A program made the position numbers and the translations under genes. The notes below the pieces were generated by a model that was given only the letters and a program-made list of their open reading frames with translations, did no database searches and was not told the DNA's origin. A DNA stretch of 62,186 nt, the filler included, from Sphacelaria rigidula (lineage: Eukaryota): assembly GCA_964200075.2 (NCBI GenBank). It is 8 parts of 8 records of this genome, joined end to end, with 100 filler letters (N's around TTAATTAATTAA, not from the genome) between each part and the next. Parts side by side here need not be neighbours in the genome. Positions count along the whole stretch, not along the records: positions 1 to 7,687 come from CAXNAA020013791.1; 7 more parts are not named here. One strand, 5' to 3'. Positions 815 to 52,740 of the stretch are shown one piece after another (the stretch's first letter is position 1; every line of letters begins with the position of its first letter).

Positions 815-3429
815 CGTATGACCATTGACCTCGCTCCCCTACAAAGCCGTGACGAAGCACGCCGGGCTTTCGCCGGCCCGCGCTCAAGAGGGGGGAAAAG
901 AAACTCCTCAAAAGTGTGTGCCACTTTGAGAGTCGCAACCTGCGAGTCGATTTCCAAGAATATTTTGCATTATGATAAAATACCATTGATCCGCATCACC
1001 GTTCCGCACTCCTACTTTGCCTCGAATATCTCCAGGTGTCCGCGTTTTTTCCTCGACCAAAAAATGGACGTGAAGACGAATCTCCTCGCGCTGAAGCTGT
1101 TTCGGCCTCATCGATGTTTTGACAAGCACGGCAGTGACGTGGTCTTCAACTGGATCATATAAGTGCTGGCGCAGCATGGCATACGCCATGTGAACATCGC
1201 CGGCGCGGTGACGGATGCGGGGTCTGACGTCCCGAGTGGGGTGGTGTCGGCGTGGTCTTGGGAGTGGTGTTTTACCCACCTGCTGAACCGCGATCATTGA
1301 CGCCACAGGAATGTCGCCCGCGAAGGATCGCTCCAAGAATGTTCAGTGTCGCGAACTACTCGACCTCATCGAAGGGATGGTGGAGCACTTCAACAAGTCC
1401 GCCGTTGACAAGGTTACGTATCATGGAATTTGTACGACAACCTGCGTGCCTCAGGTACCAGTGCCATCTTCCTGTGTGTATGATCGACACCCTTGTGTAC
1501 CGTAACCTGTTTGAAATTAGCTCTCTCCCACCCCCATCTTCGCTTGAGCGCTTCTCTCGAAAACAGCCCTGCACGTTGGGGAACGTTTTATTCAGCCGCT
1601 GGGAAGTCGCGTTTTCTTATACGTGACTAGTTCTTGCATTCGTAGTTGAAACCTTCGACTGCTCCTTCAGTCTTTTTTCGTGTGCGAATGACGGATACAG
1701 TAACATCCGCGAATCATAAATCGTTCTCAGTCTGCGATGCGTACGCAAAACCTCATCACCGAAGTTGCCTCGACGCTGACTCGTCTCATTTTTTCTTGGA
1801 ATTCAGCTGCGTGTAACAAATGTTACGAGCAGATCGCCCTGAAGAATATCATCGACGAAATGTCGGGAGGGAAGGGCTTCAAGGCAAAGCTGTCGCAAGC
1901 CGTTGCCCAGCGCTGGATCAGCGTCTGCCAGATGCTGCTGCGTGTCCTGAAGAGATGGGACACCCTAGAGACATTCTACTTGGCCAAGGGAAAAGGTTCC
2001 CACTTGGCCAAGTAGAATGTCTTTAGGGCGTACCATCTCTCCAGGTCCTAATTGGCACCACCGCCTTGGATCCGAAACGCCCACTCCAGGTGAGGCATGT
2101 GCAGGCAGTCGGGCAAGATGAAGAGGACGTGGAGCCGGAGGAGGTACAACCCTCCGTCGAGTTGACAAGGGTCGCGACAGTCACCCGCGAGGCATTTGCA
2201 CAGGGTGTGGCCAGACGGTTTGTATCACCGCGTTACGGGAAAGGCCCCTCGTCTCACAGCTACAGGTATGATATGGCCATATTCCTAACTCCGGGCGGGC
2301 GTGGTCTTAATTATCTGAAGAGGCTAAAGAACTCGACCGTCGGAACGCTGGAAGGTTTTACAAAGTCAGTAGAGGACGTGCAGGCAGTAATTATTGGCCA
2401 AGTCAGGGATCTCCTCACGAGAGCGATCAGTAAAAGCAAGGCAAGGCCGAAGACGACTCCCGTCGTGGTGGAGGTCGAGTCGCGAGCGGTGAAGCGGTTA
2501 AAAATCGCCACCGGCGCCGCTGTCGATCCGTGGCGAGAGGAGTTCGCCGCGGAGGGCATCATGGGACTCCGATGAAGGGGGGGAAGCTACGAGCACCCCC
2601 GAGACCACTCCTGAGGAAGAAGCCGGCGACCTCATCAAGGTATGGAAAAACGCCGAGATGTGTTGTACGTTGCGATGTATCGATATTTCTGCATTGCACG
2701 TTCCCGTTCTTTGACTCATCCCCATCAAGAAAAAACGTGACTCCAAGCATTGGGATTGTTCATGTCTGTTCGTACTCCCCCGGCATTTCAATGTAGCAAG
2801 ACGCGAGCATCACCATTGCTCCGCCGCATACACTCCATTGGGGGTCTTTTTGACAGGCGCATGTATCAAGCAGTTCAATTACGTACCAAAAAGCATCCTG
2901 TGATCCATGTTCATAATGCAGTAGAAACGTAGGACGCTAGAGTGGGGGTCGCTGGCGAACCGCGCCCCACTACTATGTGTTCAACATGATTTTTTTTCGT
3001 CACTCCGGGTTACAGATCGGGAGAGAGGAGAAGAAGCTGGACGGTGTCGAGTATTGGCGGGCCCACGGCAAAGAACACTCGTCTCACCTTCGGTCCCTGG
3101 CGCAAGCGGTGTTTGGTGCACCTTCCTACGCGGGAGTAATGGAGCGTGAATTCTGTGTCACGGATATGTTCCAGCCCCGCAAACGTGGTGGCATCGACCC
3201 CGCCAATCTGGAAATGGCCTTGTATCTGCGGGGCCAGTTCGACAACATCCCTGCAGACATCCCACTGCTCACGGAGAAGCAGGCATCGAAAGCCGTGCCA
3301 CGTCGGTTTACCGGCCGAAAAATGCTCGAAGAAGTTAAGGTGCTGGACTTCTCTCTCGAGCCCGAGAGTGATACGGGGGACGAGGAATATTTCTCGTGGA
3401 AGAGCGAGTACAAGGCGGTTCCGAATTAG
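815..3429 (+). pseudogene. Intron-containing hAT transposase pseudogene
   Basis: hAT motifs appear in order: VTDAGSDV (1208), WCFTHLLN (CxxH-LN), QRWISVCQMLLRV (RWxSxxxML), and a C-terminal dimerisation domain YWRAHG...LRSLAQAVFGAPSYAGVMEREF...RKRGGIDPANLEMALYLR. Plausible GT/AG junctions occur at ~1412/1806 and ~2640/3015. There are several in-frame stops and frameshifts. No TIRs were identified. Confidence 0.85.
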
Positions 3430-6354: not shown

Positions 6355-7585
6355 GGGGGGGTACTCATTTGCTGCTTGCCTCGTCATTCGACCACTGACC
6401 GCGCATCCCGTCCGACACGGAGCACCGTCCCTACTCCCAAAGGAAAAACCTCCAACATGTCGGCGCTCATTACGTTTCTTCAATAATTCATACAAGAACC
6501 TCTCACGTATCATATCCCCTCCCTGTTTCGCCATCTGTCGCCACCATCTCCTGGCATAGCGATCGTTTTCTCGCCACCATCGAGTGTACCAAACGATTCC
6601 ATGCCATTTCCGTATACGTCCCACATTTCTCCCTCTTACAAGTCCCGTCCCTCCCTGCATAGTTCACATTTCTCCACTATTTGAGTTCTACTCTTTACTG
6701 CTTTGCAACAGGGGCCGCTCCGTGCATCTGCTTCGTCTTCCACACGACTACTGGTAATACCCCTTTCTTCTTTCTGGCAGGTCTAGGTCCCCCACCGAAA
6801 ATCGCAGTTTCAAAGTTTTTTCACGTAATCCATTGCACCGTGCAGATATGCTTTCATCCCCATCTCCTGTGTCAACCCCTCGTTTATCTTCAGGTGCTCC
6901 TCCCCGTCTGATTTCCGCATTAGCACTGGTTCCCCCCTCAATTTCTCATGTCACTGACTTTGTCTTCTACTCCCCACATTCACCTATGAACAAAATCTCG
7001 TCTTGGTTTCCTCCTATATCCTTCAAGTACTTAAACTACTCCGCTATCCCACCTTATTTCAGTCTTCCCTTTCGTTACTTAATTCTATACAGCCCTCGTC
7101 AACTATGGCCGGCAATCTCGTCCTTGGCATGTTCCTTACGCTATATTGCCCTTTCGATTTTCTCATGTCTCTAGCATTTTTCAGGAAGGTATATTCCTAT
7201 TTCTGCTTTCAACCTCTCTAAGTCGTCGGTTTTGAGCATCCAATTACCTTCTTAGCCGCTTTCATCTGCACTGTTTCCAGCCATCTCACGAACTTCGCGT
7301 TCCCTTCCCATCCTTCTGCATACTCTAGCTTCGGTACAATAACTCTCAAAATATATCCCTCGATCTTCGTATGGACGTGCCATTTTCTCAGCATCACGTC
7401 CATCTTGCCTATTTGTGCGCTTCCCTCTCCTATTACTCCATCTGCATGTGCATCCCAACTACACTTTATTGGACTCTGTACGCCAAGGTATGTATACCGG
7501 TCTGCGATCGGCAATTCCTCCTTCTCCCCACGTGTACTTGAACCCTACTGGGTCCTCCTCATTTTCATCACGTCCTACTAGAAGG
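6355..7585 (-). mobile_element. Non-LTR retrotransposon (LINE) 3' portion, decayed, ending in oligo(C)
   Basis: RT C-terminal YTYLGV...IVPKLEYAEGWEG...LETVQMKAAKKVIGCSK, then GMKAYLHG and a Cys-rich region. It ends ...GGCAAGCAGCAAATGAGTACCCCCCC. Confidence 0.85.
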
Positions 7586-7593
7586 CATGCGGA

Positions 7594-7670
7594 GGGGGGG
7601 GGGGGGGGGGGGACTCATGATCATGAATGCCCTAGTCCTAAGCCCGTTTACCCCGCATCCGTCCAAAGCC
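7594..7670 (-). mobile_element. Retroelement 3' end (family A) with long oligo(C)
   Basis: The reverse complement of 7611-7670 matches bases 1-60 at 48/60. A G-run precedes it on the + strand, and it sits at a contig end. Confidence 0.6.
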
Positions 7671-7687
7671 GGGAGGGGGCCCCCCGG

Positions 7688-7787
7688 NNNNNNNNNNNNN
7701 NNNNNNNNNNNNNNNNNNNNNNNNNNNNNNNTTAATTAATTAANNNNNNNNNNNNNNNNNNNNNNNNNNNNNNNNNNNNNNNNNNNN
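7688..7787. other. Artificial contig spacer (N44-TTAATTAATTAA-N44); also at 15474, 23260, 31046, 38832, 46617 and 54402
   Basis: An identical 100-bp spacer with stops in all six frames recurs every 7785-7786 bp. Confidence 0.97.
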
Positions 7788-14313: not shown

Positions 14314-15573
14314 GTAAATGCTGTGTATAGCTCTATGCGGTTATTCCTGGATCGTTTCGCGAGCCCATATGCGGTAGTGATCATGGCATAACCTTGAGTT
14401 CTGAGACAACGCTTTTGCAACTTTTCGTGGGCAGTGTTCAGCATAAGGCTGAAATAACTGGAATCCAAGTTTCGCACCAAGATAAGATCCACTCAGCTCC
14501 AACATATACGCTTAACAGCGACCGACCCATATGTGAAAGATCTAACATTGCATCCTTTAGCTGTTCATTGCAAGAGCACATATCTACAGCCCCGTCAACT
14601 TTTGCCTTCGTTGCTGACCGTAGCGAATTTTTTAATATAAACATATCTCGCCATCAGGCAGCAAGTGCACAATAAAGATAGACGAACACATCAAGATATA
14701 TCCATGCACTCGAAGTTAGGGTAACCAATATTCCGCCTTAAGACAGCGGGCATCACCTCGAAACAGTTTCAAAGGCTGACAGTCCGCAGACATTCATGGG
14801 TTTCCAGGGGACGGAGGGAGATTGGGGGGGGGGGGAGGGGGGCTGAGCTGGGAGGAATCTGTCCGCAGAGCAACCGGAAAGCTCACGACGTCAACTATGT
14901 GTACTTGGGAGTTTCCCGGGGAAGATTCTAAGCCTGGAACCATGTCCGACAGGCGCAGAATGACCATTCCGACCAATCACGGCCGTCAAAATGGCCACAG
15001 AGACATCAGCGGCATGCAGTAGACTGTGTTTAGTGGACAGCGATGATACGCTTGATTTCTTGCCGTTGTATACAGCGAAGACATACAACACACATACCGT
15101 ACACAATAGGCTGCAGGGTCAAAACTGGTCAGGGTTCTGCGGGACTGTTTCCTGTATAGAGTAGATGCCACACACCCGCATGCTCATGAAAAGGGCGTTT
15201 TGTGCAGCGCAATAAGAGCTGTTCTGAACCGAAAGTGTGCCATAGTCCAACTCAGTCTACCTGCGGAGGGATCGATGTCCGAGGATTAAGGCGACATGTC
15301 CAAACCGCAACTTATCAGAAGTCGTCCGCCAAGTGCTTGCAGTAGGTTGCGTGTGACTACAAGGAAAGACACTTTCTACGATAGCCCCCCCCCAAAACGT
15401 GCACTTTGGGAGGCAAAATCTTCACGTAAATCGAAATGGGAAAAGTCGAGCACAACGAGAAGCTGGGAAGTCCNNNNNNNNNNNNNNNNNNNNNNNNNNN
15501 NNNNNNNNNNNNNNNNNTTAATTAATTAANNNNNNNNNNNNNNNNNNNNNNNNNNNNNNNNNNNNNNNNNNNN

Positions 15574-15943
15574 CCACCCCCACAACGTAGAACTCATATA
15601 ATGGCAGAATGTGAACTATACAGGGAGGAACAGAACGTGTTAGAGGGGGAAATGTGGGGAGTAGAACAAAGGTGGCATGAAATCGTTTTATTTACTAGAT
15701 TGCAGCGAGAAAACTATCACTATACCATTGTAGGAGATAGATGGTGGCCACAGACGTCGAAACAGGACGGGGATGGCTAATCCAAAAGGCTTCCGTGTGA
15801 ATGTATGGAAAAAACGTAATGGGCGCCCAAATGTTGGAGATGTCTTTATTAGGAGTAGGAACGGTGCTCCGTCTCGAAGGAGATGCGTGGTCAATGCTCA
15901 AACGACCAAGGCAAGCAACAAACGCGTAGGCCCCCTCCCCCCC
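15574..15943 (+). mobile_element. LINE 3' end (family B) with oligo(C)
   Basis: Homologous to the reverse complement of 6355-6690. Encodes NVWKKRN...SRNGAPSRRRCVVNAQTTKASNK and ends in a C-run. Confidence 0.8.
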
Positions 15944-15944
15944 A

Positions 15945-16011
15945 AAGCCTACTGATTATCTTGCATTTGGATGACAGCCTACAATGAGTTGCTTTATTTT
16001 CTGGTATCGCC
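15945..16011 (+). repeat. 67-bp dispersed repeat
   Basis: 63/67 identical to 50043-50109 in another contig. Confidence 0.75.
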
Positions 16012-16499
16012 ACAGCCCCCCCCTCCCCCCCCACTGCTGGACGTGAGGGGTATCATGGGTAGGCATAAGAGCAATGTAAATAACCAGGGTCCATATCACC
16101 ATATTGTGGGAGCGGGGTCCCCCCCCGCCCCTCCCGCCATTTTCGCTTAGATCCCTTGTCATGTCTACCTCACGGAGCCCTGTGGTGTTTTCCTTCAGCC
16201 GAGAGATGCGTGTGTCCAGGAACACGCGAGTGTCTTACCCACCCGTCCGTATTGAGGGATATTTTGATGAGGGACGGCCGACAAACAGGAACGCGACAGC
16301 AAACACAGTCAATCAACTTACGTAGACACTATATATCCCTTTTATCCCTCTTTTTGCCATGAAAATAAAACACAACAACGCAGCTGAACCAAAAGAATTG
16401 TACAAACAAGAACATGATATTGTTTATTGTATTTTTGCTTATTTGTAATTATTTCGAACCATGAAGAAAAATAACAGCAAAAGCCATAACAAGAGCGAA

Positions 16500-16580
16500 A
16501 ACGACAACCACAACAACACCCCCGCCACTAACAACAACAACAACAACAACAACATCAACAACATCAACAACAACAACAAC
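16500..16580 (+). repeat. (AAC)n microsatellite upstream of an acceptor site
   Basis: Direct reading. Confidence 0.9.
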
Positions 16581-16616
16581 GATACCGTGTACAAAAACAA
16601 AACAAACACAAAACAG

Positions 16617-16765
16617 GGCTGTCGAGAAAGACCAAAGAGGCGCTTGTCGAGGCCTTCGGTTCTCTAGAGCTAGCAAGAACAGCGGGCGAGGCGGAATTGC
16701 AGCGTATCCCGGGGGTTGGACCCACCATCGCCAAGAGAATAATGGCTAGTGGTCGGTCGGGTTAA
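16617..16765 (+). CDS. Terminal exon encoding a tandem helix-hairpin-helix (HhH)2 domain, UvrC/ERCC1-type
   Basis: Acceptor aaaacag|GG, then (G)LSRKTKEALVEAFGSLELARTAGEAELQRIPGVGPTIAKRIMASGRSG*. It has the FGS...EL..IPGVG...A.RI signature and stops shortly after it. Confidence 0.75.
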
Positions 16766-17689
16766 CGCGGGTTCGTCTTTCAAGAACGATCCGTGGTTGC
16801 TTTCACTTACAGTTCAGGGCGGACGCTGGTATCCGGATCTTCGGGGGGACTGTCAGCAGCCCGAAGCACTCCGCCAGCGTCGTAGCTGTGGTGCTGCTCC
16901 GCACTTTCGCACACTCGCGTTTCTTTTTATTCGTGCTCGGATCGGCGCTGCACAACCGTGACGTATAAACGACTCGGGGTCACTCTCAGATACTTGCTTA
17001 GCACGAGGGTTGTGTCTGTTTGCCTGGGGATAGAATTGGGGCTAGTGCGGTTTCTTGGGGACTGCAGAATTTGTCAACCGTTCGTCGTTTGATACTGGTG
17101 ACGAGTTCGCGCACGTAGACCCTTCGAGAGCCCCCGTTGGTTTAGTGGAGATATTTATTCACGGTCTCTACACTCGTTCATCATCGATGGAGGAGCCCTA
17201 CGCACTGTATTGGGGTGATTTGCGTTCCGTATTGTGTAACAGCGGGTAGCCTCGTTAATATGCTACCTGACTGTATATACATACTGTGTTATTGTGAGTA
17301 CATGTGGGGAGTTTCAAACGCTTGGTGGAGTTTATGACTTGGAATTCATCGTGCACGGAGCAAACGGCTTGTACAACCATTGTGACGTTTATTCAGTTGT
17401 GAACTGTTACTCCAGAAGCGCTCCACCATCATTAATTTTTTCGTCTGTTGATGTGTATGGTCATCATTCTCGTGGTGTCGAATACAACATCATGTCGAGT
17501 GTAGGGTGTAACAGTGGGGATGTGGTGTGGATGCGTGCTGGGTATTATTCGCTTCTTTCCTGCCTCCTTGAGTTGCCGTTGATCGCACGGTACCGGCCAC
17601 AGTACAGTAACTACAACGCCCGCCTACGGATCAACTGTGTGATTATCTTGATTTCAGTATAATTCCGAATATTCCCCCCCTCCTCAACC

Positions 17690-17785
17690 GAGTAGGAACG
17701 GTGCTCCGTCTCGAAAGGGATGCGTGGTCAATGGTCAAATGACTAAGGCAAACAAAAAAAAAATCACCCCCCCCCCCCCCCTCCT
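17690..17785 (+). mobile_element. Short LINE 3' end (family B) with oligo(C)
   Basis: AGTAGGAACGGTGCTCCGTCTCGAAAGGGATGCGTGGTCAATGGTCAAATGACTAAGGCAA, then a short A-run and about 15 C. Confidence 0.75.
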
Positions 17786-19164
17786 CAACCCCGGGAAGAG
17801 AGATAATGTACACATCTACACATGTAGCACTGACATCCCATCCCCGCCAAGTCCCCGCCGATTCGCCAGGTTTATTACGCCCACATATGGTCTTGCCTCT
17901 GAGGGGGCTACAATAATCAATATCGTGAAAAACAAAAACAATCTGAGCGACTGAGGACGTCATGACGACTTGTTTACTTTGGGTTTCGTGGGGAAGCTGA
18001 GTTTCGGATTCTTCCAGGGGAGGGGGGTGGGGTAGGGCGGTGGATAATCCCAAGTGACTGCTGGTGTGCGCAGCGCGCGTGTTTAAGCCAGAGATTGACG
18101 CTGTACGGCGCCGGTTTGTACTCTTCAGCCCACTCTTTATACCTAGGGTATTCTCTGGATCCCTGATCATTCGGGGGTCCTCGGTCTTCCCGGGTTACGG
18201 TTCGGGTTCGAGTTCGGGCTCGGGTTCTATCAGTTCTAGAGTGTTTGGACCGCGGACTAGTTGTTTGACGACGAACTCTACCGTAGGACTCCCCTGCGAT
18301 TTACCCGTACCTTTCACACGCTCTCGCTGACGACGTAACGATCTTGCCTTTCGTTTAGCTTGTTCTTTTCGGGTTGATATTTGGTGAGCTGTTGTCTTGG
18401 GGGGCCTTGAGGTGCTTCATTTAGGCTTCGTTAGGATTGTGGAAGGAAGCAACGTAGAGTATAGGGGGGCAAAGTTGGCTGTTGTATGCGGCACTGCTAA
18501 CTGTGTATCACCTTTGTTTTTCTCATGTTGGGTGGTCGCGAATCAGAGGTCACGACAAGTACCTTCCTTCGCCCAACAAGTATTCACTGTTAGGTTCGGC
18601 TCGCCACGTGGTATTTGCAGCTCCAAAGCGATTGTGTTGTGGCTGGGGCGTTGTGATTTTGCGGGGAGTTCAGGGTTGCATCCCTATGTCTATTGAGTAG
18701 CTGTTGTCCCCTGCTGCACGCAAGAATCGATGCCGCGTTTTCAGCGGGAACCTATCGTAGATGCCATGTAAAATACGAACCTCTTGGGGATGGGATGTTC
18801 TACCTTGCGATTCGCAGCTCTTTCCTTCACCGTCAAGTCTACCTGCCGTGGATTCTAACTTGAATACGGCGTCATCACGGATCGCCTGGCCAGCACCTAC
18901 GGCTCTTGAGGCCCTTCAGGACGTTGAGTAACGCCAGATACTCACTACATGCCTGGCAGCCCTTCAGGTCGCTGAATAATTTGTTACGGCACAGAGTCGG
19001 AAATGAGGGGTTTTGTGCCTGGACAACAGCACCCAACGAACATGCAACGGCTGGACAGCCATCAAGTGACCTCTGTAACTTTGTGTAGATGAACAGCGCT
19101 GCGCCCCCCCACAATCCTTGCCAGACGGTAACACAGCTGCAACAGTCAGCAGATCAGACAATGC

Positions 19165-19525
19165 CCAACGTAGATCAAGCCATCATCGCAGGGTTCGAAC
19201 GCATCACAGTACAGCTACAAGTATAGCATAAAAACAGATGGGTATGGGCACGAAGCGTCTTGCTCGTTTTACAGGAAACTCAACAATCAACAATAACGCT
19301 TCCAATAGTGCGTAGAAACGACTGCGTGCTGACTCCAATCTCGTAGCTGACTGGGACACAACATTACGGCAGTTGGGGCAATCGCCAGCGCAGATCAAAC
19401 CGTCTTCGCAGGGTTCGAACACACCACAGTAGTACAGTGTCAGCCATAGCGCAGGAATGATGGGTCTGGGGACGAGGTGCCTTGCTCGTCGCGAAGGCAC
19501 AGCGTTCAACAAACACAACGGCATT
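19165..19525 (+). repeat. Diverged direct repeat, ~220-bp period, with a third partial copy at ~20160-20205
   Basis: Shared core AGATCAA...TCGCAGGGTTCGAAC..A.CACAGTA...GATGGGT.TGGG.ACGA...TTGCTCGT. Confidence 0.6.
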
Positions 19526-21020
19526 TTCACCGGATTGAGGGTCTAGCATTCGGTCGAGAGTGAGAGCACTTATCAGGAACGCGTTGTTTTATGTGTTCCA
19601 GTGATGAATGAAACACTGACGAGTAACACGTATAGAGGACGATCTGATTTGTTGAACTTATACTAAAGAGAAGGGAAACGAGTTCATTAAACGTCGAGCC
19701 ATTCCTCTCATGAATGCGCTGGTGTGCGTTGAGCAGGTTACGACTATCGGTCGCACGTACTGCCATGCATTCCAAAATTGTTCTTCCAATTTATACGTTG
19801 AATGCGGGTGTACGATATTGACCCGTCGCGATTCGAAAGAATCTTGCTTCGGCGTTTGATTTCCTTCGAATTATACGTCCAACGACTACTCCTTCGTAAT
19901 GGTGACCCCTTGATCGTCATGGTTCGCAACCTCGGTCATGCGATCACTTTTCAAGTGAAAATTATTCCAATTCCACAAACGGTTATTATTACACGTTGAT
20001 TTGCAATAAGAAGCTATACTCTCAATCTGGTGAAGTTGCTGTTACACATCATGGCAGTCTCAACTTTCACGACACAGCGAAGAGTACCGACTACAATCAC
20101 TATGTTTAGAGCGGAACACAACACCGAAAGTACAGCAACTCAGGCAAATCCCAGCAGGAACCAAACCACTTTCGCAGGGTCTAAGCACACCACAGTACAG
20201 TTTCAGCTGCTACATCACATGAGAGGGGGCGTGGGTGTGTTTGCGGTACAGTGCAGTGAACATGTCCCATAGCTGCGACTTCTCAACCCGGTTTTGAACA
20301 GCTCGTCAAGTCAGGTCGGGCGTTTAAAGAGGGATATCAATTTTGATCAGAAACCCGCCGGCTGACCATAATTCAAAATCGTGGGGCTTACTCTTGTTCA
20401 AAATTGTCACTGATTTTTCCCGTTAGGTTTTTCGCAGTTGGTTTAACGTTGGGTGCGATTTCGCTTTTGAACGGGTCTCATAAGAGCTGTCGGTCTCATT
20501 TTCTCCTACAACGGTGTAACAAAACAATCTTTGGCGTTTTCTGTAAGTTCCTTCGAGTTTTGTGGGAGACGCGAAGGAGTTCCAGGATTTTGTATAATAT
20601 GGTGAGTAATTAACCGTCCGGTCGAAAAGTCAAACGGGACTTATCAATGACTGGAAATGTGCTCTAGAATGTTCTTGAAGAGTGCCTGCAGCAGGCTTCC
20701 CCGGGATAGCACAATGTGTCAGGCTCGTTTGTCGGGCAAAAATCGGCGCCTAATCGTCATATTGCCTAATCGTCATATTGTGTAAGAAAAACGATGGATG
20801 TGTTCGTTTCGACATGAAGAGGGTTGACCTGGAAGTTTTCTTCACTCTATTTTTCCCACTGGGAATGACCGCGACTGAAACCTAGTTTTTTGGGGGGGGA
20901 TTTAACATCTGCCTTCCTGTGAAATATAGCGGACTGACTCATCAAGACAAGAAGGGTAGTCAGATCATGGGAATATTGGTCTTGAGGATAATGACAAAGT
21001 GAAGGCTCATCTAACCAAGA

Positions 21021-21175
21021 AGCAAGGCAAAGCAAAGCAAAGCAAAACAAAGCAAAAACAAAGCAAAAACAAAGCAAAGCAAAGCAAAGCAAAAACAAAG
21101 CAAAGCAAAGCAAAAACAAAGCAAAAACAAAGCAAAGCAAAGCAAAGCAAAGCAAAGCAAAGCAAAACGAAACAA
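21021..21175 (+). repeat. (AAAGC)n/(AAAAAC) microsatellite
   Basis: Direct reading. Confidence 0.9.
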
Positions 21176-21329
21176 GCAGCCCAAAACACATAATATATGT
21201 TTGGTTTTGTTGTCGCTATGTACCTCCGTGACCACAGCAAATAGGCAGCTATCGATCGACCAATCATCATACACACGCATATATATATATATTATATAGT
21301 GAACTTATGTGTGTGTTGGTCGAACAACG

Positions 21330-21773
21330 TCACAGCAATCGATGGCTGCGACGGGTCCCGTATATATTGTAGTTTTTAGCCACGTCAACGAGCACTCTCG
21401 CGTCCTCCTGGAATCGCTGCAACCGGCGGTCGAGGTCCTCCAGGTCGAGGTCACCGTCATCGCCGTCAACCGTTCGCGTGGGTCCCCCCGCGGTTCTTGT
21501 TGATGCTGTTGCCCTTGTTGTTCGTGTCGTTCTTGCTGCCGCCGCGGTGCTCAGTGTCTTCGGCCCCGGAGCAAGTCGTAGTTTTCCTTTTTTTTCCTTG
21601 CCCCCACGAAAAATAGGACTGATATTACGGGTACTGCTGTCGAAAGCCGTTGGCGATTTTGGTGTCAACCGTGGTGATGGTGGTGGTGGTTGTGACGATG
21701 ATCGCGATGGAGAGTGGTCTTGTTGAGCGGACCGGCTTGCCGGGAGCTCGTACAACCTTGTTGCCTCGAGTTC
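21330..21773 (-). CDS. Putative terminal exon of an S/P/T-rich unknown protein
   Basis: Open frame after possible acceptor cagcag|GAA, ending in a helical-looking DLDLEDLDRRLQRFQEDARVLVDVAK segment. Confidence 0.35.
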   Translation of the reverse strand, partial: ELEATRLYELPASRSAQQDHSPSRSSSQPPPPSPRLTPKSPTAFDSSTRNISPIFRGGKEKKGKLRLAPGPKTLSTAAAARTTRTTRATASTRTAGGPTRTVDGDDGDLDLEDLDRRLQRFQEDARVLVDVAKNYNIYGTRRSHRLL

Positions 21774-21840
21774 CTGCTGTTGATGATGGCAACGATGTTA
21801 ATGCTGCAGTTGGTAGTGACGTGATCGTGTTTGTGGTTCA

Positions 21841-22152
21841 CAACGTTTTCGTGAGATTGAGAGTGGAGCGCTGATTGAGAGTGGCTTTGATCATTCGCTT
21901 TAACGTAGCCGGTTTTTCAATCCATGCGTGCTTTTCTTTGCCTCCATCGCTGGCGTGTGCCTACTAACAGCTACACGTCGCTATCCTACTTGGGGATATC
22001 AAGGGCCTCAGTGGCAAGCTACTACAAAAAGCATATATAGTCTATCGGGCCTCGTTGAGGGGCATTTCAGAACTAAAAATATTCAGTCACTAATAATTGA
22101 GCGCTTTTCACTCTCAATCGTATCCTCTACTCTCAATCTCACGAAAACATTG
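21841..22152. mobile_element. MITE-like element, 312 bp
   Basis: TIR CAACGTTTTCGTGAGATTGAGAGT / ACTCTCAATCTCACGAAAACATTG with repeated GATTGAGAGT subterminal motif. No clean TSD. Confidence 0.65.
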
Positions 22153-22155
22153 ATG

Positions 22156-22156
22156 G

Positions 22157-22223
<67 letters not shown>

Positions 22224-22243
22224 CATTGTAATTGTTGTTGTTG
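22156..22243 (+). repeat. (GTT)n microsatellite
   Basis: Direct reading. Confidence 0.95.
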
Positions 22244-23119
22244 TTCTTTGACGAAATGACAGAGAAGGATGCGACAGAAGACTACAAACGATGCAGTCAT
22301 TCGATGAAGAGCAAGTAAGTCGGCTGGCTGCGCGAGAACGTGGTGACTGAAACCCCATGCTCGACGGTAGAAACACACTATTGTAACGAGGCGAGTACCG
22401 TGCCGGAGAAGAGACGGGTTGATTGATCTCTTGAGACTGCGGACTCGTCCCGAGATCGAAGGGGAGGAAGGGCAACGGTGGAGGGAGGGCAGATGTAAGA
22501 AGGTACAACACTCTACCCCCGAAATACAAGCATCGTGTCGTTCACACAACATAACGTGAAAGAGATGCACTATTCATCCCCCATGTGGAGGGTACCCAAT
22601 AAAGTTGAGAAAAATTCCAACAAGGAGAGTCGATAGAGAAGTTGTAAACCTTTACTTCGCTCCAGGAGCTAACCGTGAGCAATCAACATAACCTCCCGTT
22701 TTGTTTGCTCACCGCATCGTGATAGGGTTTGCCGAAGTCATCGTAAATCCGATGGGCAACAATCTTACATTTTTATGAAGGAACCCCGCGAATTCCGTAC
22801 GTGCAGTGTACCATGCTCTTAGTAGTGGTATATATACTTGTTTGTCCCTGCATTGAATTGAAATCGATATTCCTACGTTGTCATTACGCGATCGAGCAAA
22901 ATATGAAATTGAATATGTTTCGTGATTTCAACCTCAAATATATTTTCAATGTTTTTCTATGTGCAAAGGGTCGTTTAGTATACTCGTCTACAAGTACATT
23001 GACATGGCCATTCTCACGTACTTGGTCAATAGCACATCAAGGCGGTGGGTGCATTACGTCCTCCATCGAAGAGAGTTCCCTCCCGCCCCCATCCCAACAG
23101 TGCCCAACATGCTGAGTCT

Positions 23120-23259
23120 CGACAGAGATGCGTGGTCAATGGTCAAACGACTGAGGCAAGGAACGGATGAGTACGCCCCCCCCCCAAACAAGAAGTAATG
23201 AGCGCCAGAATGTTGGAGGTGTCTCTATTAGGAGTAGGAACGGTGCTCATTACTTCTTG
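23120..23259 (+). mobile_element. LINE 3' end (family B) with oligo(C), followed by a second LINE 3' fragment
   Basis: GATGCGTGGTCAATGGTCAAACGACTGAGGCAAGGAACGGATGAGTACG, then C10, then ATGTTGGAGGTGTCTCTATTAGGAGTAGGAACGGTGCTC. Confidence 0.75.
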
Positions 23260-35076: not shown

Positions 35077-38000
35077 TGTCGCGAAGTCACAACAAGAGAA
35101 GAGTAAATACTTGTAAAGGACAGTGTTCTGGACGTCCAGTTTTGGTGAATGAAGTAGGGCAAGAGGTTCAGATGCCGCGCATAGTGGCTTCTGTGGATAG
35201 TAACACCGTACCTATGATCAACCGCAATGCAGCACCGGGAGGATTGACCGTGGCGTGCGTCGCGCGCTCGTGACCGATACAGATGGAGACGAGGTTTCTG
35301 TCGGCTTGTAAATTCGAACTCTTGTGAATATCACACCACCCCTTGCTCGACCGTCCAAGTGCTGGCGAGTGAGCGTATGTAGGTTTAGGCAGAGTTGAGT
35401 GCAGCGCCATGGAAGTAGAGGGGAGTCTTGGTGAAGGGTGCCGGGTAAGACGGTTGCAATAGTAAGCACCCTCTCATGATCTGTCGACAGGAATCGTGTC
35501 TTACAACCGACTGGGGAACGCCGAAAAGATATCACACCTGCGGATACGAGATTCCTGGGGTTGGGTTGGAGTAGGGAGTTTGGGAGTTTGTGGGGGGGAG
35601 GGGAGGGAAGGCTTCATCGTCCTGTTGCGTTGAGCATGATTTCACGGGGGTCCCGGTTGATGAGAACAGACGGCGTGGACGCTCGTCGTTCGCAACCGAT
35701 GGTATCACCGTGCGTGGAACACCTACCTGCTCGTGTTCTCGCATTCGATGGAAGACAATGCACCATTCTGTGCGCCAGAGGGGAGAGTTCGAAGGGGAGT
35801 ATCCCAGTCGTTTCCGTGCCGGAATCTTGTGGCGTATCCATGTTGCGTTGAAACCGACTTTTTGATTGAGGGGAGGGAACACAAACCCACAGCTGATCGA
35901 TTCCAAGACACGAACATTGCCCGTCTTAGTCGTGCCTGACGGACCCCCCCCCTCCCCTCCCGCCACCATGTCGTCCAGTCGCGCGTGTTACAACTGCGTG
36001 ACACCGGACATATGATCAAGGACTCCCCCAAGCCTCGCGCTTAAGGCGTAGCATAGGGCAATGCACGAGATTTATCAGGATCTCGGGGCGGTCGTCACGG
36101 TCGACGGGGCCGTGCCAATCAGGGACGCGGGCACGGCGGCCGCGGCAGCAAGCAATCGGCGGCGGATGGTGGTTCCTCCGCTGCTGTTTCTTCCACTACG
36201 TCATCAGGTGGTGACTCTGGATCTTATGGTTCGTCCGTAACGAGGCGGATAATGTACGTGGGAAATGCAAATACTTCGGTTGGGAGTGCTGGAGCGAATA
36301 GCTCGCAACCCCTCGGCCAGGCAGGATCCGTGTCTGGTGCATGTCCTACTGCTGCGACGGCTGCAACAGCGCCGTCTGCATATTCGGCGACTTGGTCTGA
36401 GTGGACCGCCGATTCGCAGGTATCGGTGCCAAATGCTGGAGGGCAGCCCTGGCGTCAGGTGACTCTCAGGACAAATCAGGGTTCTTCGGGTGAAGTGGTA
36501 CCTGTCGATCGCAAGGCTGAATGCTTACGAGCAGATTTAGCCTTACCTGGTTCTGTAGTTCGTTCATGGCCAGCGTTATTTTGGATTCTGGCTTCGCGCT
36601 CACGTCAATCGGTGTGGGGTTTCTAGAACAGATCTCTTTGCAGTTTGGCAGTACTCAGCTTCAAATTCACTTTGAAAACGGACCGCAAACGGCACAGACC
36701 GCCAAGGGTGCTTCCGTGACGGTTACACACAAAACGGTGTCGATTACTGTTGGCGTGCGTACGCCGTGTGGGGCTGTACAGTTGCAGCCCATTGCGTTCG
36801 CTGTCATGCCCGGTAGGGACAACGTGGTTATTTGGGATGGCGACAATGAAGGAGCTTGGGATTGATCAATATCCGCTGGCGTTCGAAACGTTACGTCCGC
36901 GTGCTGTGCCGGTGCAAACCGGCGTGACAAATCCCAGTTACCTTGCTGCAAGACGTGTGATCGTATCCATAAGGTCATTCCAGAGCGCCAATGAGGAGGA
37001 GGCTCCTGCTGATGAAGCGGTGGAGCGCTTGGTCGATCGGGGGCCGGAAATGTTTATGAACCCTGCAGAGGAGGGAGGTTCAAGGAAATGTGCGCTTGAG
37101 GATGGTGTGCGGCAGGCCGAGCAGAAGGGCCTGAGCGTCGATGGCTCCCATTGTCTGCGCGATATTTTGGCTCGTCGCGTGGATACATATCGTCGTGTGC
37201 TGCGTGGTGATCCACCAGCGCGCGTGGGGCCAATGTAGGAGGCTGTCAAGGCCAAGCCTTGCCGCTGCGATCCGGTGAAGACCGTGTGGCTTGCTTCATG
37301 CATCGCAGCTTTGGTGACATTCGGTTTGTTGGTTAGGAACATCCAGGCTGTGTGGGCGAGTGCGGCGATGGCGGTGCCGGAGGGGGAACACATTCGGTCT
37401 GGTCGGCGACTATCAGGCGGTGAACGCGCAAGTGGAACAGTCTCCGGGGGTGATGCCAAGCCAAGAAGACATGCGGGAGTGACTGGGAGCCCAATGCTTG
37501 GGCAAGTTGGACCTGCTACAGGGGTATTGGCAGAGGCCTCTGGCGCCGGGGGCTGAGGAGATGTTCACGATCGTCACGCCGGACGGTTTGTGTACGCCTA
37601 CTCGTGTCCCGCAGGGCGTGTTGAACGCCACGGCGTATTTCCAAGGTGTGCTGAGTGACACATTGCGAGGTCTACACTGTAAAGTGTGGGTGAACGACGT
37701 TTTCTACTTTGCTGGAACCGAAGAAGCACAGTCAGCTTTGCTTGACGAAATTCTCGGCCGCGTGGGGAGTGTTGGTCTGTTCGTCGCTGGGCATGAGTGT
37801 ACGTTTTGCGCACACGAACTGGTTTGGTGTACTAAGGTGCACTCCGAGGGTACCGTTTCGAATGATCTCGCCCGCACTCAAGGTTTAAGCAATATATGCG
37901 ATGCCCTCCAACCGCTAGTGAGCTGATGCAGTTTCTGCAGGCGGTAAATTGGTTGCGGACTTTGCTCCTACGCATGGCGGGAGTATTTGCTCCGCTTTGA

Positions 38001-38831
38001 GTATTTCTGGAACAGCTCATGGTCGGGGCTTCGCGTCGGACCAAGCGGGTGGCGCGTAATCGTACCATTCCGAAGGACGCTTGGACGGAGGATCGTGTGC
38101 GGGAATGGCGTGCTGCACAAGATTTGGTGGTGCAAGCGGTGCCGCTGTATCATCCTCGTCCAGGGTGCGTTGTTCTGGTGTTCCCAGATGCTTCGGAATT
38201 TCACTGGCGTAGTTTTTGAACGAGAGTGCCTGTCGCCGAGTTTAGTAGTGGCATTGCGCTCGAAAACATGTCACACGAACTGTTAGCTTTTCTGGGTGGT
38301 AGTTTTAAGGGTTCACAGTTGCGGTGGGCGACAGTGGACAGGGAAGGTTTCGCGATAGTCAAAACATTTCGAAGGCTAGAGTACTTGTGTTGGGGTGGTG
38401 TTCGCATTTACACCGATCATTGCAATCTTGAGTACATTTTTAACCCCGATGAGTGTGTTACATCGGTGACGAAGGCCATGGCGCAACGGCTTGAAAATTG
38501 GAAAGAAGTGCTCGGCCAATATTGGTATGCCACTGAACACATTCCTGGAGAGCGCACTTGTTGGGGAGGTTTGTTGTTTCGCTGGGTGAAGGTTCCTACC
38601 GTGCCTGCTCGTTCTGTTGCCGTGTACAGCCCGTGTGATGCCGAGGATTCGCTGCCCTCGTCCGATGTCATTCGTACCGCGCAGCGCAAAACAGTCGGCG
38701 ACGGTGTTCATTCTTTTCGTACGACTTCCGGTCAAGCTACTATGGCTGACGATGGTTTGTTTCGCGTGCGTGTTGGCAGTAGTGATGTTTTGTGGATTCC
38801 GTCGGATGATAAGGCTCCGCAAACTCGTTTG
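35077..38831 (+). mobile_element. Ty3/Gypsy LTR retrotransposon, decayed, truncated by contig end
   Basis: Zinc-knuckle remnant CYNC..GH (~35985), protease ILDSG (~36580), RT KLDLLQGYWQ...PTRVPQGVLNATAYFQ...VWVND, RNase H FPDASEFHW and QLRWATVDREGFAI...IYTDHCNL, in PR-RT-RH order. The 5' boundary at TG 35077 is tentative. Confidence 0.9.
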
Positions 38832-38931
38832 NNNNNNNNNNNNNNNNNNNNNNNNNNNNNNNNNNNNNNNNNNNNTTAATTAATTAANNNNNNNNNNNNN
38901 NNNNNNNNNNNNNNNNNNNNNNNNNNNNNNN

Positions 38932-38991
38932 TAGGGATGCGAGGTCAATGGTCTGATGACTATGGCATGCATGATCATGAGTACACCCCCC
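38932..38991 (+). mobile_element. Retroelement 3' end (family A) with oligo(C)
   Basis: Near-identical to 8-67 and located at a contig start. Confidence 0.65.
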
Positions 38992-39505: not shown

Positions 39506-39740
39506 TACTGTCTACTGTAGCTACGAATTCACGCCACCTTCCTCTCTACATCTTCTCCAAACGTCCCGTTCCTCCTTGTATAGTTCAAATTCTGCCAGTA
39601 CACGAGTTCTATTCTCTACTGCGTTGCCACAGGACAATTCTGTGCATCTACTTCCTCCTCCACTCGACTACTGGTATATCTCTTCTCTCCAGCAAGTCCA
39701 GGTCCCCCACCTGAGATCGCACTGTCAATTTTTTCGGGTA

Positions 39741-41093: not shown

Positions 41094-41483
41094 TAGCCTA
41101 ATAAACCGTGCAGATATGTTTTCATCCCTATCCCCACTCTCAACCTCCCGTACATCTTCAAATATTCTTTCTCGTCTACTTTCCGTTTACATGTTTTTTT
41201 ACCCTTGTTTCTATTGTGTCTCTGACTTTTGTTTTGTACCCCCCACATTTGATTACGGACATCACCTCGTCTTGGTTGCTCCTATCCCCCTTCATCCTTT
41301 CTCGATTTCGCTATCCTACCTTATCCCAGCCTGCTCTTTCGTCATGTTCTTCCATGCAGCCCTATTGATCATCGCTGGCAATTTCTTCCTTGGCATGTCC
41401 ACTGCATTATATTGCCATTCAACTTTTATCCGTGTATCTATTTGTTTCAAGTGTGTACATCCCCCATTCTGCTCTCAATACTG

Positions 41484-42315
41484 CACGGTTCGGACAAATC
41501 AAATCGTGATTCAACTCGTTTCATCATTTGAACGAATAAATCACGCGATTCGTAGATCATTTGTGATTGGTACATGTGTTGGGTTCGTGATTCGTACGAC
41601 AAAAACTGAAATGTGCACATTCCGAGTTCGTGATTCGTGCGGTACACCGTGGAAGGTATATGTCTCCTACTTTTTTTCATACGGGGTAAATCACGCGCAC
41701 ACAAAAATCTCCTTTAGTTCATGTGAGACGAATCATGGTAACATGTCGCCTAACGCTTAGCTCATTCGGCATGAATCGCACGTGCATCTGCCCGCCCTTG
41801 AGCGCATGCGGGACGAATCATGTGTACATGTCACCCACCCTTGCGTTCATGCGGGATGGACCATTGATACATGTGTCACACCTTCAATTCATACGACATG
41901 AACCATTGATACATATCTCCTACCCGTTAGTTCATGCGGGATGAATCGTGGGTACATATCCCTCCCGTCAAGTTTATGCGGGATGAATAATGGGTACATA
42001 ATTTCCCCTCGTTTTCATGCAATATGACTCATGGGTACATGCGGCCCACCCTTTGGTTCATGAGGGATGAATCATGGATATGTGTTTTCCACCAATGATT
42101 AGTACATGGACGATGATTCGTACGTGTTTTTCGATACTGATTCGTGTTACACAAACTGAAGTGTACACATTTCAAGTCCATGATTCGTGCGGCATGACCT
42201 TGAATATACAACTTCACCATTCGTGATTCGTACAGGATGACTGATTAGTTCACGATTCGCACTCGAACATTCATTAGGAGTCAACCCGTATGAACTCTGA
42301 TTCGTTCGAACCGTA
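41484..42315. mobile_element. Non-autonomous hAT-type element with 8-bp TSD and internal ~41-bp minisatellite
   Basis: Perfect TSD CAATACTG at 41476-41483 and 42316-42323. TIR CACGGTTCGGACAAATCA / TGATTCGTTCGAACCGTA. About 8 units with core TTCATGCGGGATGAATC at 41760-42090. Confidence 0.85.
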
Positions 42316-42856
42316 CAATACTGTATTACTCCTGGTTTTTGAGCATCCTTGTGTGCACCCCAAGAACATTTATTTATATTTTCACGTCATGGTATGTATA
42401 GTGGTCTACGGTCGGCAATTCCTCTTCTCCTCACTTGCATTTGAACTTTACCGGGTTTTCCTACCTTCATCACATACCAGTCCCCACATATTTGTTCACG
42501 CTCGCTGTCACTCTCCATTTCCTAGTGTATTCTAACGCCTTCTCTATTTGTGTCTGCAATCCTTCTGGTGTTTCTCATATCCCCACGAAATCATTCGCGA
42601 AAATCAATCCCGATACCGTATTTCCCCCACCTTGACTCCTTGTGTTGCTGCTTATATTGCTCTTATCAGATCACTAATAAATACCCTGAATATAGAGCGT
42701 GATAACGTACACCAAAGGCGGGGAGGGGAAAACAACGTGTTGAAGTGAAATTTGCTGGATGTATGCTCAGCAGACCAAAATTCGAACTTTGAGTGACTGG
42801 CAATTAATCATGACCGAATCTACTTGGATGAAAAAAGGCGCCAGGCCATACCATAC

Positions 42857-49842: not shown

Positions 49843-49908
49843 GGGGTAGGGGTGTACTCATGATCATGCATGCCATAGTCATAAGACCATCGACCTCGCA
49901 TCCCTACA
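49843..49908 (-). mobile_element. Retroelement 3' end (family A) with C-rich tail
   Basis: Near-identical to the reverse complement of 8-65, and abuts an internal N gap. Confidence 0.65.
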
Positions 49909-51138
49909 NNNNNNNNNNGACGGAGCACGCCGGGTTTTCGCCGGACCAGGCTTGTACTCAAACCACCAAGCGCGAACCGCCGTGGGGTGTTCGGCGGGTC
50001 GCATGAAGGGTGAGCCGCATCCTGCTAAGATTGTTCCGCCCGAAGCCTACTGATTATCCTGCATTTGGATGACAGCCGACAATGAGTTGCTTTATTCTGT
50101 GGTATCGCCGCTTCCAGAGACAGCCACGGCTTTTACACTGCCTCACGGGTGTCTAAGTGGCGGGGGTAAGGGGGTTGGTATAACGGGTGTTCTATTCCAG
50201 GCAATGTGTGTGTCGGCGGAGCTCAGATCGCCCGGTTTGGGTCAAGGCAAAGATTGAGTCAAAATGCGTGGTGCGCATGCTGTAAAGCTCCTCGGGGTAT
50301 TGATGATCCCACAAAATCGATGCCTGAACATAGTTTGACATTACTATCAAAAGTCTGCGTTAAAGACGTTTGCGTATTTTGCAGTCAATCATAGCGCTTT
50401 CGACTGTTTCTTCAAATCTGCGGGCGTTTCATCATGAGCATACAGTAAAACATTTGCATCGCGTATAATCCACAAATGCAACTACTGAGCCAGTTCTCTT
50501 CAAACGAAAAACGTTTAATCTTGAATCCCCATTGCCACCGTAACAAGTCAACACTGTGGTCATAATCCATAATTTTTCGGCGTTTCCTTTTGCATTTTCC
50601 GCTCGTCACACTCACTTTGTAGACGTGGGGATTCCCCCGACCCATCGCCCCAAATCCACACTTGACAAACAGCAAGCTTCACTATAGCAGTATTGACCAT
50701 CATATGATCATCTCTGGGAGGCCGACAGTCCCAGGAGCTCGCCTAGCATGCGCATCCTGACTCAGATCGGTGCCGCAGGTAACGACATGAGCTCTGTCAA
50801 CGAAAACGTTTGCCTAGGGTACCTACCCTGTGCACTCTCCTTGCTCGATAATCCTCGGTCATTCTCGGGTTGGGTAGCGTCAAGGGTCAGCCTTTTGGTT
50901 TGACGATAACACAAGGTATACCCAATCGTGGGATTTTGGTGCGGCGGGTTGGGGGTAAACCCCAACCCGTCTGTAAGGATTCGTACGAGGAGCGCAAAAA
51001 CACGACACAGGAATATAAATCGAATATGACCGACACAGACATGACAGCAACGATCTGATCGTGTTGACTGACGAGCGCAAAAAAACAAAATGGAGCATGA
51101 TCCATACATCGCGTTCGCCTTCACGTTCAAAATCTCAC

Positions 51139-52204: not shown

Positions 52205-52260
52205 GGGGGGTGTACTCACGATCATGCATTCCATAGTCATGAGACCATTAACCTACAACG
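52205..52260 (-). mobile_element. Retroelement 3' end (family A), with small deletion
   Basis: Reverse complement reads GTAGGTTAATGGTCTCATGACTATGGAATGCATGATCGTGAGTACACCCCCC. Confidence 0.6.
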
Positions 52261-52740
52261 GGGGGGGGGGGGGCTAGTTCTCACGAGGGCAGGGGGACAA
52301 AAACAAAAAATTAGAAAAAAAAAAGAAGCCAAGGAAAAATGTAANNNNNNNNNNGGCGCGCTGACTTGTGTAATTTATTCTGCTTTCTGTCCTACCGTTT
52401 CGTCCTAGCTGGCACCCCGGGTGGACGGGGCTAGTTCTCACGAGGGCAGAGGGACAAAAACACAAAATTAGAAACACATCAGGAAGCAAAGTAATATGTT
52501 AACTCAACGAACGTAACTTAACGGAAGTCAATATCACCTCCCACTCCACACCGCCGAGCAGAAATGAAGAAAAGGCATTAGAATAGCCAAGCAAAACTAG
52601 GGAAGTAAAACAAGTAAAACATAGGGGGTGAATGAACAATGCAAACAACCACATAACATACAACACACACAGAAAAAAAAAAAAAGTAATTTAAACACAC
52701 ATCAAGAAGATGTAAATAAAAAATAAAATGATTTTCTCAC

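Follow-up and report, generated by a model that had tools for sequence, protein, structure and literature searches.

LINE-type jumping genes usually carry a tail of A. The closest described systems to the family reported here are found in Ectocarpus, for which Dinatale et al. (2025; PMC12477816, Supplementary Material 3) tabulate RTEX-1_Ec32 as “single EN-RT ORF; (C)n 3'” with a “C-rich” target-site duplication (TSD), RTEX-2_Ec32 with “(C)n termini/TSD” (both elements 5.5–5.9 kb), and, alongside RTEX-N2_Ec32, the non-autonomous RTEX-N1, of about 605 bp, which can be tandem and is annotated “60 bp 3' end 83%”. The main text of that paper is silent on the C tail and contains neither “C-rich” nor “homopolymer”, though its figures and FASTA supplements may say more, and the accessible text of two other reports that mention RTEX (PMC4421812; bioRxiv 10.1101/2023.01.23.525193) holds nothing on tails. 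A literature search, limited largely to open-access papers, returned no study of C-tailed LINEs. This kind of LINE is thus already on record as a table note, with its mechanism unstudied in the literature so covered. In green algae, RTEX 3' ends are (CA)n, (CAA)n, (CCAT)n, (ACAATG)n and (CTTGTAA)n (Ohshima, 2013, PMC3747384, Table 3).

Compared by description, the Sphacelaria rigidula family resembles RTEX-1/-2/-N1_Ec32 in its (C)n 3' end, its C-rich TSD and a ~600-bp partner with an 83% 3' end, but belongs to another genome, and the main-text and supplementary-table parts of the Ectocarpus record contain no counts, fold, truncation pattern or mechanism. Nor is the trait undescribed, (C)n ends and C-rich TSDs being already tabulated for Ectocarpus RTE-X families (PMC12477816). 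As in green-algal RTEX, the end is a simple repeat and poly(A) is lacking; here the unit is a single C and the 3' UTR measures 5 nt. The eel LINE UnaL2 and its SINE, a stringent pair (PMC1636434), likewise have a structured 3' end in common, followed by a terminal repeat, although UnaL2 falls in the L2 clade and repeats UGUAA, whereas the putative recognised stretch overlaps the ORF here. Mammalian L1 is similar in its homopolymer tail, the matching homopolymer at the TSD start, 5' truncation and the combination of APE and RT; unlike L1, our family uses C/G rather than A/T, has one ORF and has a sequence-specific 3' end common to its partner. It shows neither an L1-type poly(A) tail nor an A-rich TSD, and the match to L1 RT is distant only (about 30-bit-scale, E about 1e-12). 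Such an element would be a naturally occurring C/G counterpart to the A/T priming of L1, one that can separate the endonuclease from tail-to-flap pairing as the source of LINE target choice and can show whether a LINE dispenses with poly(A) altogether.

The window, i.e., the whole stretch of 62,186 nt analysed, comprises eight parts of a draft short-contig assembly (244 Mb, 27,214 contigs) separated by seven spacers (N44, 12 nt, N44) at 7688, 15474, 23260, 31046, 38832, 46617 and 54402; several element ends in it sit at contig edges. The preliminary description had proposed that four LINE 3' ends share a terminal motif followed by a C-run, and they do so on two contigs (one at 6355, three within 15574–23259), the C-rich runs occupying 6355–6361, 15931–15943, 17767–17781 and 23176–23185. 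The motif it quoted is the consensus; aligned without gaps to the final 50 nt of the family, the three copies on the plus strand agree with it at 41–45 positions. On the minus strand, a decayed, 5'-truncated copy of 1.2 kb (6361–7587; tblastn match to P0001 aa 952–1358; 75% identity to the intact relative L161) includes the RT end, a C-terminal Cys/His motif and a TGA at 6367–6365, and terminates in a C7 tail (6355–6361). This copy starts just behind the C19 tail (7594–7612, minus; G19 on the plus strand) of a 3' end of the non-coding partner, hereafter F2 (7613–7687, minus). On the plus strand, a 5'-truncated copy of about 340 nt (15589–15930, 82% to L161) bears a C-rich, interrupted tail (15931–15943) abutted by an internal F2 fragment on the opposite strand (15941–16013). 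Further along the plus strand, a 3' fragment of 77–78 nt (17690–17766) is preceded by a left TSD of 16 bp, C7 plus 9 nt (17674–17689), and followed by a C15 tail (17767–17781) that merges into the right TSD (17775–17790) and is ~7 C longer than the left copy. The short A-run reported before this C-run (17754–17763) substitutes for part of the motif, and a poly(A) tail at 17754 was rejected, as the run lies inside the changed motif. The last plus-strand end closes a 66-nt fragment of the truncation hot-spot class (23110–23175) with a C-rich 5' flank and a C10 tail (23176–23185), right after which comes a second plus-strand LINE fragment without the terminal domain (23190–23248). Three internal LINE fragments lie on the minus strand (39561–39736, 41106–41483 and 42350–42711).

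Besides these four LINE sites, six more ends in the window belong to F2. These are the C19-tailed end described above, a plus-strand end cut by the contig start (1–69, C8 tail at 62–69), a minus-strand copy of ~98 nt with an interrupted C tail and a C-run at its 5' junction (763–885), a plus-strand end at a contig start with a C6 tail (38932–38991), a minus-strand copy of ~300 nt whose tail is short and C-rich (49849–50154), and a minus-strand fragment of 44 nt that lies between C14 at its 5' junction and a C6 tail, with a candidate TSD of 9 bp (52205–52273). F2 is non-coding, at least 520–567 nt long, and 83% identical to the LINE (F1) over its last 52 nt; it has a C tail too. Elsewhere in the window, positions 20983–21207 and 41711–42091 hold an AAAGC-type simple repeat and a 42–43-nt tandem array, and we take the plus-strand ORFs at 2027–3429 and 36720–38879 to resemble pieces of a hAT-type transposase and of an LTR-retrotransposon pol, respectively.

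A working consensus built from 30 RT-bearing copies has the RT ORF ending in ...GCVVNGQTTKASNK-TGA, followed by 5 nt and then by C's, past which identity among copies falls from about 0.9 to 0.5. The stop that had been noticed ~5 nt before the C-run is in the true RT frame, and the end is identical in intact relatives; an ORF without a stop that runs into the C's belongs to another reading frame and was discarded. The TGA is retained in 67 of 94 copies and reads CGA in 11, for copies about 9–10% diverged from the consensus. To gauge how widespread such ends are, 60 stretches picked by contig number (542,477 bases) were searched, yielding 52 ends, 29 from F1 and 23 from F2 (a profile search of the same sample gave 54, and none in reversed sequence). 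Leaving three ends at the end of a stretch out of the tail counts, at least 7 C were found in the next 10 nt at 26/27 F1 and 11/22 F2 ends. Since the background for this is 0.8%, the C-runs at the four window sites are not due to chance. CCCC occurred within 8 nt at 15/22 sampled F2 ends, and over all loci the counts for at least 7 C in 10 nt were 78/93 (F1) and 29/47 (F2). Poly(A), taken as at least 7 A in 10 nt, was seen at 0/49 sampled ends and at 1/140 over all loci. The proposal of a LINE family with an oligo(C) end and no poly(A) thus extends from the window to the sampled copies, which are mostly C-tailed. The median C-rich tract is 12 nt for F1 and 7 nt for F2, and in 93 LINE tails T is the main interrupting base (82 T vs. 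28 G and 27 A). F1 makes up 1.8% and F2 0.9% of the sampled DNA (together about 2.7%), which extrapolates to roughly 20,000 ends genome-wide. In four public runs from four studies, read depth, which is not informative on expression or RNA ends, stops at the C-run, and C-rich loose ends appear both behind the 3' end and before the 5' junction.

The RT is of non-LTR type, with RVT_1 in copies from the same genome and R2 and L1 proteins as best solved-structure matches. An N-terminal APE endonuclease (PF03372) lies in the same ORF in L161, and three own-genome copies (L154, L158, L152) match that region with frameshifts; a fixed 3' end, variable 5' truncation and TSDs of variable length complete the LINE hallmarks. 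Intact relatives have one ORF of 1328–1426 aa, while no full-length copy with both ends was recovered from the genome itself. Full-length relatives of 1328–1360 aa combine APE, RT and nearly the same terminal peptide, and the cluster of one of them includes Ectocarpus sp. members; the nearest named RT relatives are Ectocarpus proteins (41–60% over the RT region). The placement in an RT phylogeny proposed in the preliminary description now has a result: a quick tree of 110 RT segments, built without named RTEX references and with automatic tail labels that are unreliable for decayed copies, recovered a 20-row clade (SH-aLRT 100) that includes Ectocarpus proteins and is separate from a second own-genome LINE clade. 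Judged by sequence, the family is probably a single-ORF APE/RT LINE of a brown-algal RTE-X-like lineage, the RTE-X label deriving from the blastp notes in the supplementary tables of PMC12477816. Two other kinds of LINE ORF were met with: a ~42% identical group, mostly on megabase-size contigs, in which a longer insert precedes a conserved GCVVNG-like peptide close to the C-terminus (P0010, P0014, P0015, P0018, P0103 and P0104), and P0027, with a match to PF00443 (ubiquitin peptidase) N-terminal to its APE and RT.

Among 79 metagenome loci examined, all close relatives that reach the 3' end (L160, L161, L164 and L165) show the stop, 5 nt and C8–11. L161 is intact and shares 89% identity with F1 along 2.65 kb. 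With L164, which has 52% identity to the query protein and an F2-like copy behind its tail, the C-ending close relatives span two lineages. Neighbouring lineages end in microsatellites, namely (ATTT)n in L166, (TAA)n in L168 and (TTCA)n in L170, and lineages farther out in (CACCAT)n (L169) and (CT)n (L171). The C tail is most readily viewed as a single-base form of the simple-repeat tails carried by the sister lineages.

To characterize the target sites, we used 144 distinct ends, 121 of them with both flanks and 108 5'-truncated within the consensus. Of these truncated copies, 21 sit directly behind another tail, and in 66 of the 87 truncated non-tandem copies the 25 nt preceding the 5' junction contain CCCC, compared with a random background of 6.3%. 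Strict TSDs, which had to show a C-run and 6 or more unique nt on each side, were found for 13/108 copies vs. 19/3170 shuffled pairs, and a looser score gave 16/121 vs. a 1.2% background; the lack of a callable TSD in most copies is probably due to their divergence of about 10%. The TSDs measure about 9–18 bp and begin with the C-run, which, together with the CCCC upstream of 5' junctions, indicates insertion of the element into C/G tracts. Subtracting the 5' from the 3' tract length gives −6 to +16 nt over the 13 strict cases, so that the nick can fall within the C-run and the element can add a variable number of C's. Four of the nine strict LINE cases have 7–16 extra C-rich bases at the 3' end relative to the 5' duplicate, and a comparable excess on the 5' side occurs in none of the nine, whereas the four strict F2 cases gain at most 1 nt. 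A search for TSDs bracketing the C-run, as suggested earlier, was hence rewarded (e.g., the 16-bp TSD of the copy at 17690), and of the two options then offered, templating of oligo(C) or targeting of C/G runs, both seem true.

Over their final 68 nt, F1, L160 and L161 are predicted to form a three-way junction (z −2.0 to −2.7) with a 6-bp closing stem that stops one base before the C tract. Fold z-scores were −2.1 for the family, −2.7 for L161, −1.1 for L164, −1.0 for F2 and −0.4 for L166; of 15 windows taken upstream, one scored −2.5. Compared by eye, F1, L164, F2 and the F2-like copy have the stem of the first hairpin in common but differ in its loops. L166, 40% identical and ending in (ATTT)n (L166:2055–2145), keeps the terminal motif and, with altered base pairs, a similar predicted closing stem and the second hairpin; the best fold of F2 differs and the predicted fold of L165 has no closing stem. 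RNAalifold, run on MAFFT alignments in which the partner's 5' hairpin is misaligned, returned only 8 pairs in another register (covariation 0.06). At the level of sequence, L161 and L160 show no third-position differences in their last 22 codons (4–13 in each of nine earlier blocks), which, with the same letters being kept in the non-coding partner, supports a constraint on nucleotides. The last ~66 nt, within the ORF, therefore look like a constrained RNA fold, with modest support. This stretch coincides with a 5'-truncation hot spot, as 9/22 sampled F1 copies are truncated at 61–72 nt and none at 49–60 or 73–114, and the same junction is present in all four public runs. We rejected the reading of these short copies as a third family, as their flanks differ. 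F2 has a hot spot of its own at 95–106 nt (12/41 copies, none at 83–94), which coincides with the 5' base of an extra hairpin. For this kind of element, the truncation hot spot and the overlap of a putative recognition signal with the ORF may be details not described before.

Taken together, we put at about 70% the probability that the family moves by target-primed reverse transcription in which a G-rich flap pairs with a read-through C tract of the RNA and slippage adds C's, i.e., with the A/T logic of L1 swapped for C/G. The protein would bind the folded terminal ~66 nt of the RNA, inside coding sequence and common to the partner, and would nick the bottom strand within a G-run or next to one. 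The G-rich 3' end so released could then pair with the C tract of the RNA and prime the cDNA; slippage or pairing out of register would add between 0 and about 16 C. That tract may come from read-through of the donor's own tail and TSD, in which case the tail would be renewed at each insertion and neither poly(A) nor a 3' UTR would be needed. Frequent release of the RT after copying the bound fold might give rise to the 61–72-nt copies; elements are, moreover, often stacked in each other's tails. Parts of this scheme are known elsewhere: in L1 the flap left by the cut anneals to the RNA tail (PMC12809410), UnaL2 combines a stem-loop with slippage on its terminal repeat (PMC1636434), and R1Bm and SART1 use target pairing, although an engineered poly(C) tail on SART1 failed to prime (PMC7265360), which counts against the proposed mechanism.

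An alternative, pure targeting, would leave the element without a tail of its own, ending 5 nt past its stop, all the C's being duplicated target DNA later lengthened by slippage and the specificity coming from the endonuclease. Long C/G runs are indeed plentiful in this genome independently of the element, and in 9 of the 13 strict TSD cases, including all four from the partner, the 3' tract differs in length from its 5' counterpart by −6 to +2 nt. What makes this reading rather unlikely is the one-sidedness of the remaining LINE cases, with their 7–16 extra C-rich bases at the 3' end only, as well as the C frequency, which is 0.74–1.0 in the first 10 nt after LINE ends vs. ~0.5–0.6 upstream of 5' junctions. 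The L1 endonuclease, for its part, is only modestly specific on its own (PMC12809410). Part of the 3' excess could nonetheless arise from replication slippage that lengthens C-runs after insertion.

The closing stem, predicted to be followed by one unpaired base and then by C's as in a tRNA acceptor end, could also be taken to mean that the RNA is cut or ends at the stem base and receives untemplated C's from a nucleotidyltransferase of the CCA-adding type, or that the RT adds untemplated G to the primer. CCA-adding enzymes can produce poly(C) in vitro, and net gains reach 16 C. The tail interruptions, however, are mostly T and not CCA-like, a sister lineage with a similar predicted closing stem continues in (ATTT)n, which points to templated simple repeats, and read-through accounts for the tract without a new enzyme; we accordingly regard untemplated addition as improbable. 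The fuller version, in which the last ~66 nt would fold as a three-way junction resembling a tRNA acceptor and an oligo(C) RNA tail, added to its end by an enzyme, would prime on G-runs, the protected junction by itself serving as a 65-nt self-contained template, is to our mind just as doubtful, yet if true would amount to a retrotransposon with a genuine enzyme-made oligo(C) RNA tail. Hardly credible at all is an artefact, such as poly-G from sequencing or assembly, or the misreading of an opposite-strand element's polypurine tract or 5' end. The assembly is a draft of short contigs, several ends lie near contig ends and some very long G-runs abut them, but the runs are short, interrupted and followed by unique flank and TSDs, and the same end recurs in four independent metagenome contigs and four public runs. 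An LTR polypurine tract was rejected, as the ORF upstream of the runs encodes APE and a non-LTR RT, and so was the 5' G-run of an opposite-strand element, as the C-runs are always on the ORF sense strand.

The further suggestion, that the family could explain many of the G/C runs, is not supported, since it covers only about a sixth of the long ones: recognisable 3' ends account for 25/151 clusters of at least 8 C, 10/74 of at least 10 and 3/44 of at least 12 in the sample, and 7 further C clusters lie at 5' junctions. The element thus uses C/G runs more than it explains them, with the proviso that decayed or tail-only insertions would escape these counts. For comparison, the sample (L091–L150) contains 77 C/G homopolymers of at least 10 nt and 47 of at least 12 nt, vs. 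46 and 12 for A/T. A second source of C-runs is another repeat family, in which a C-run stands beside a short inverted-repeat-like motif (window 15368–15393; also L115, L140, L111, L105 and L129), and into which some LINE copies are inserted.
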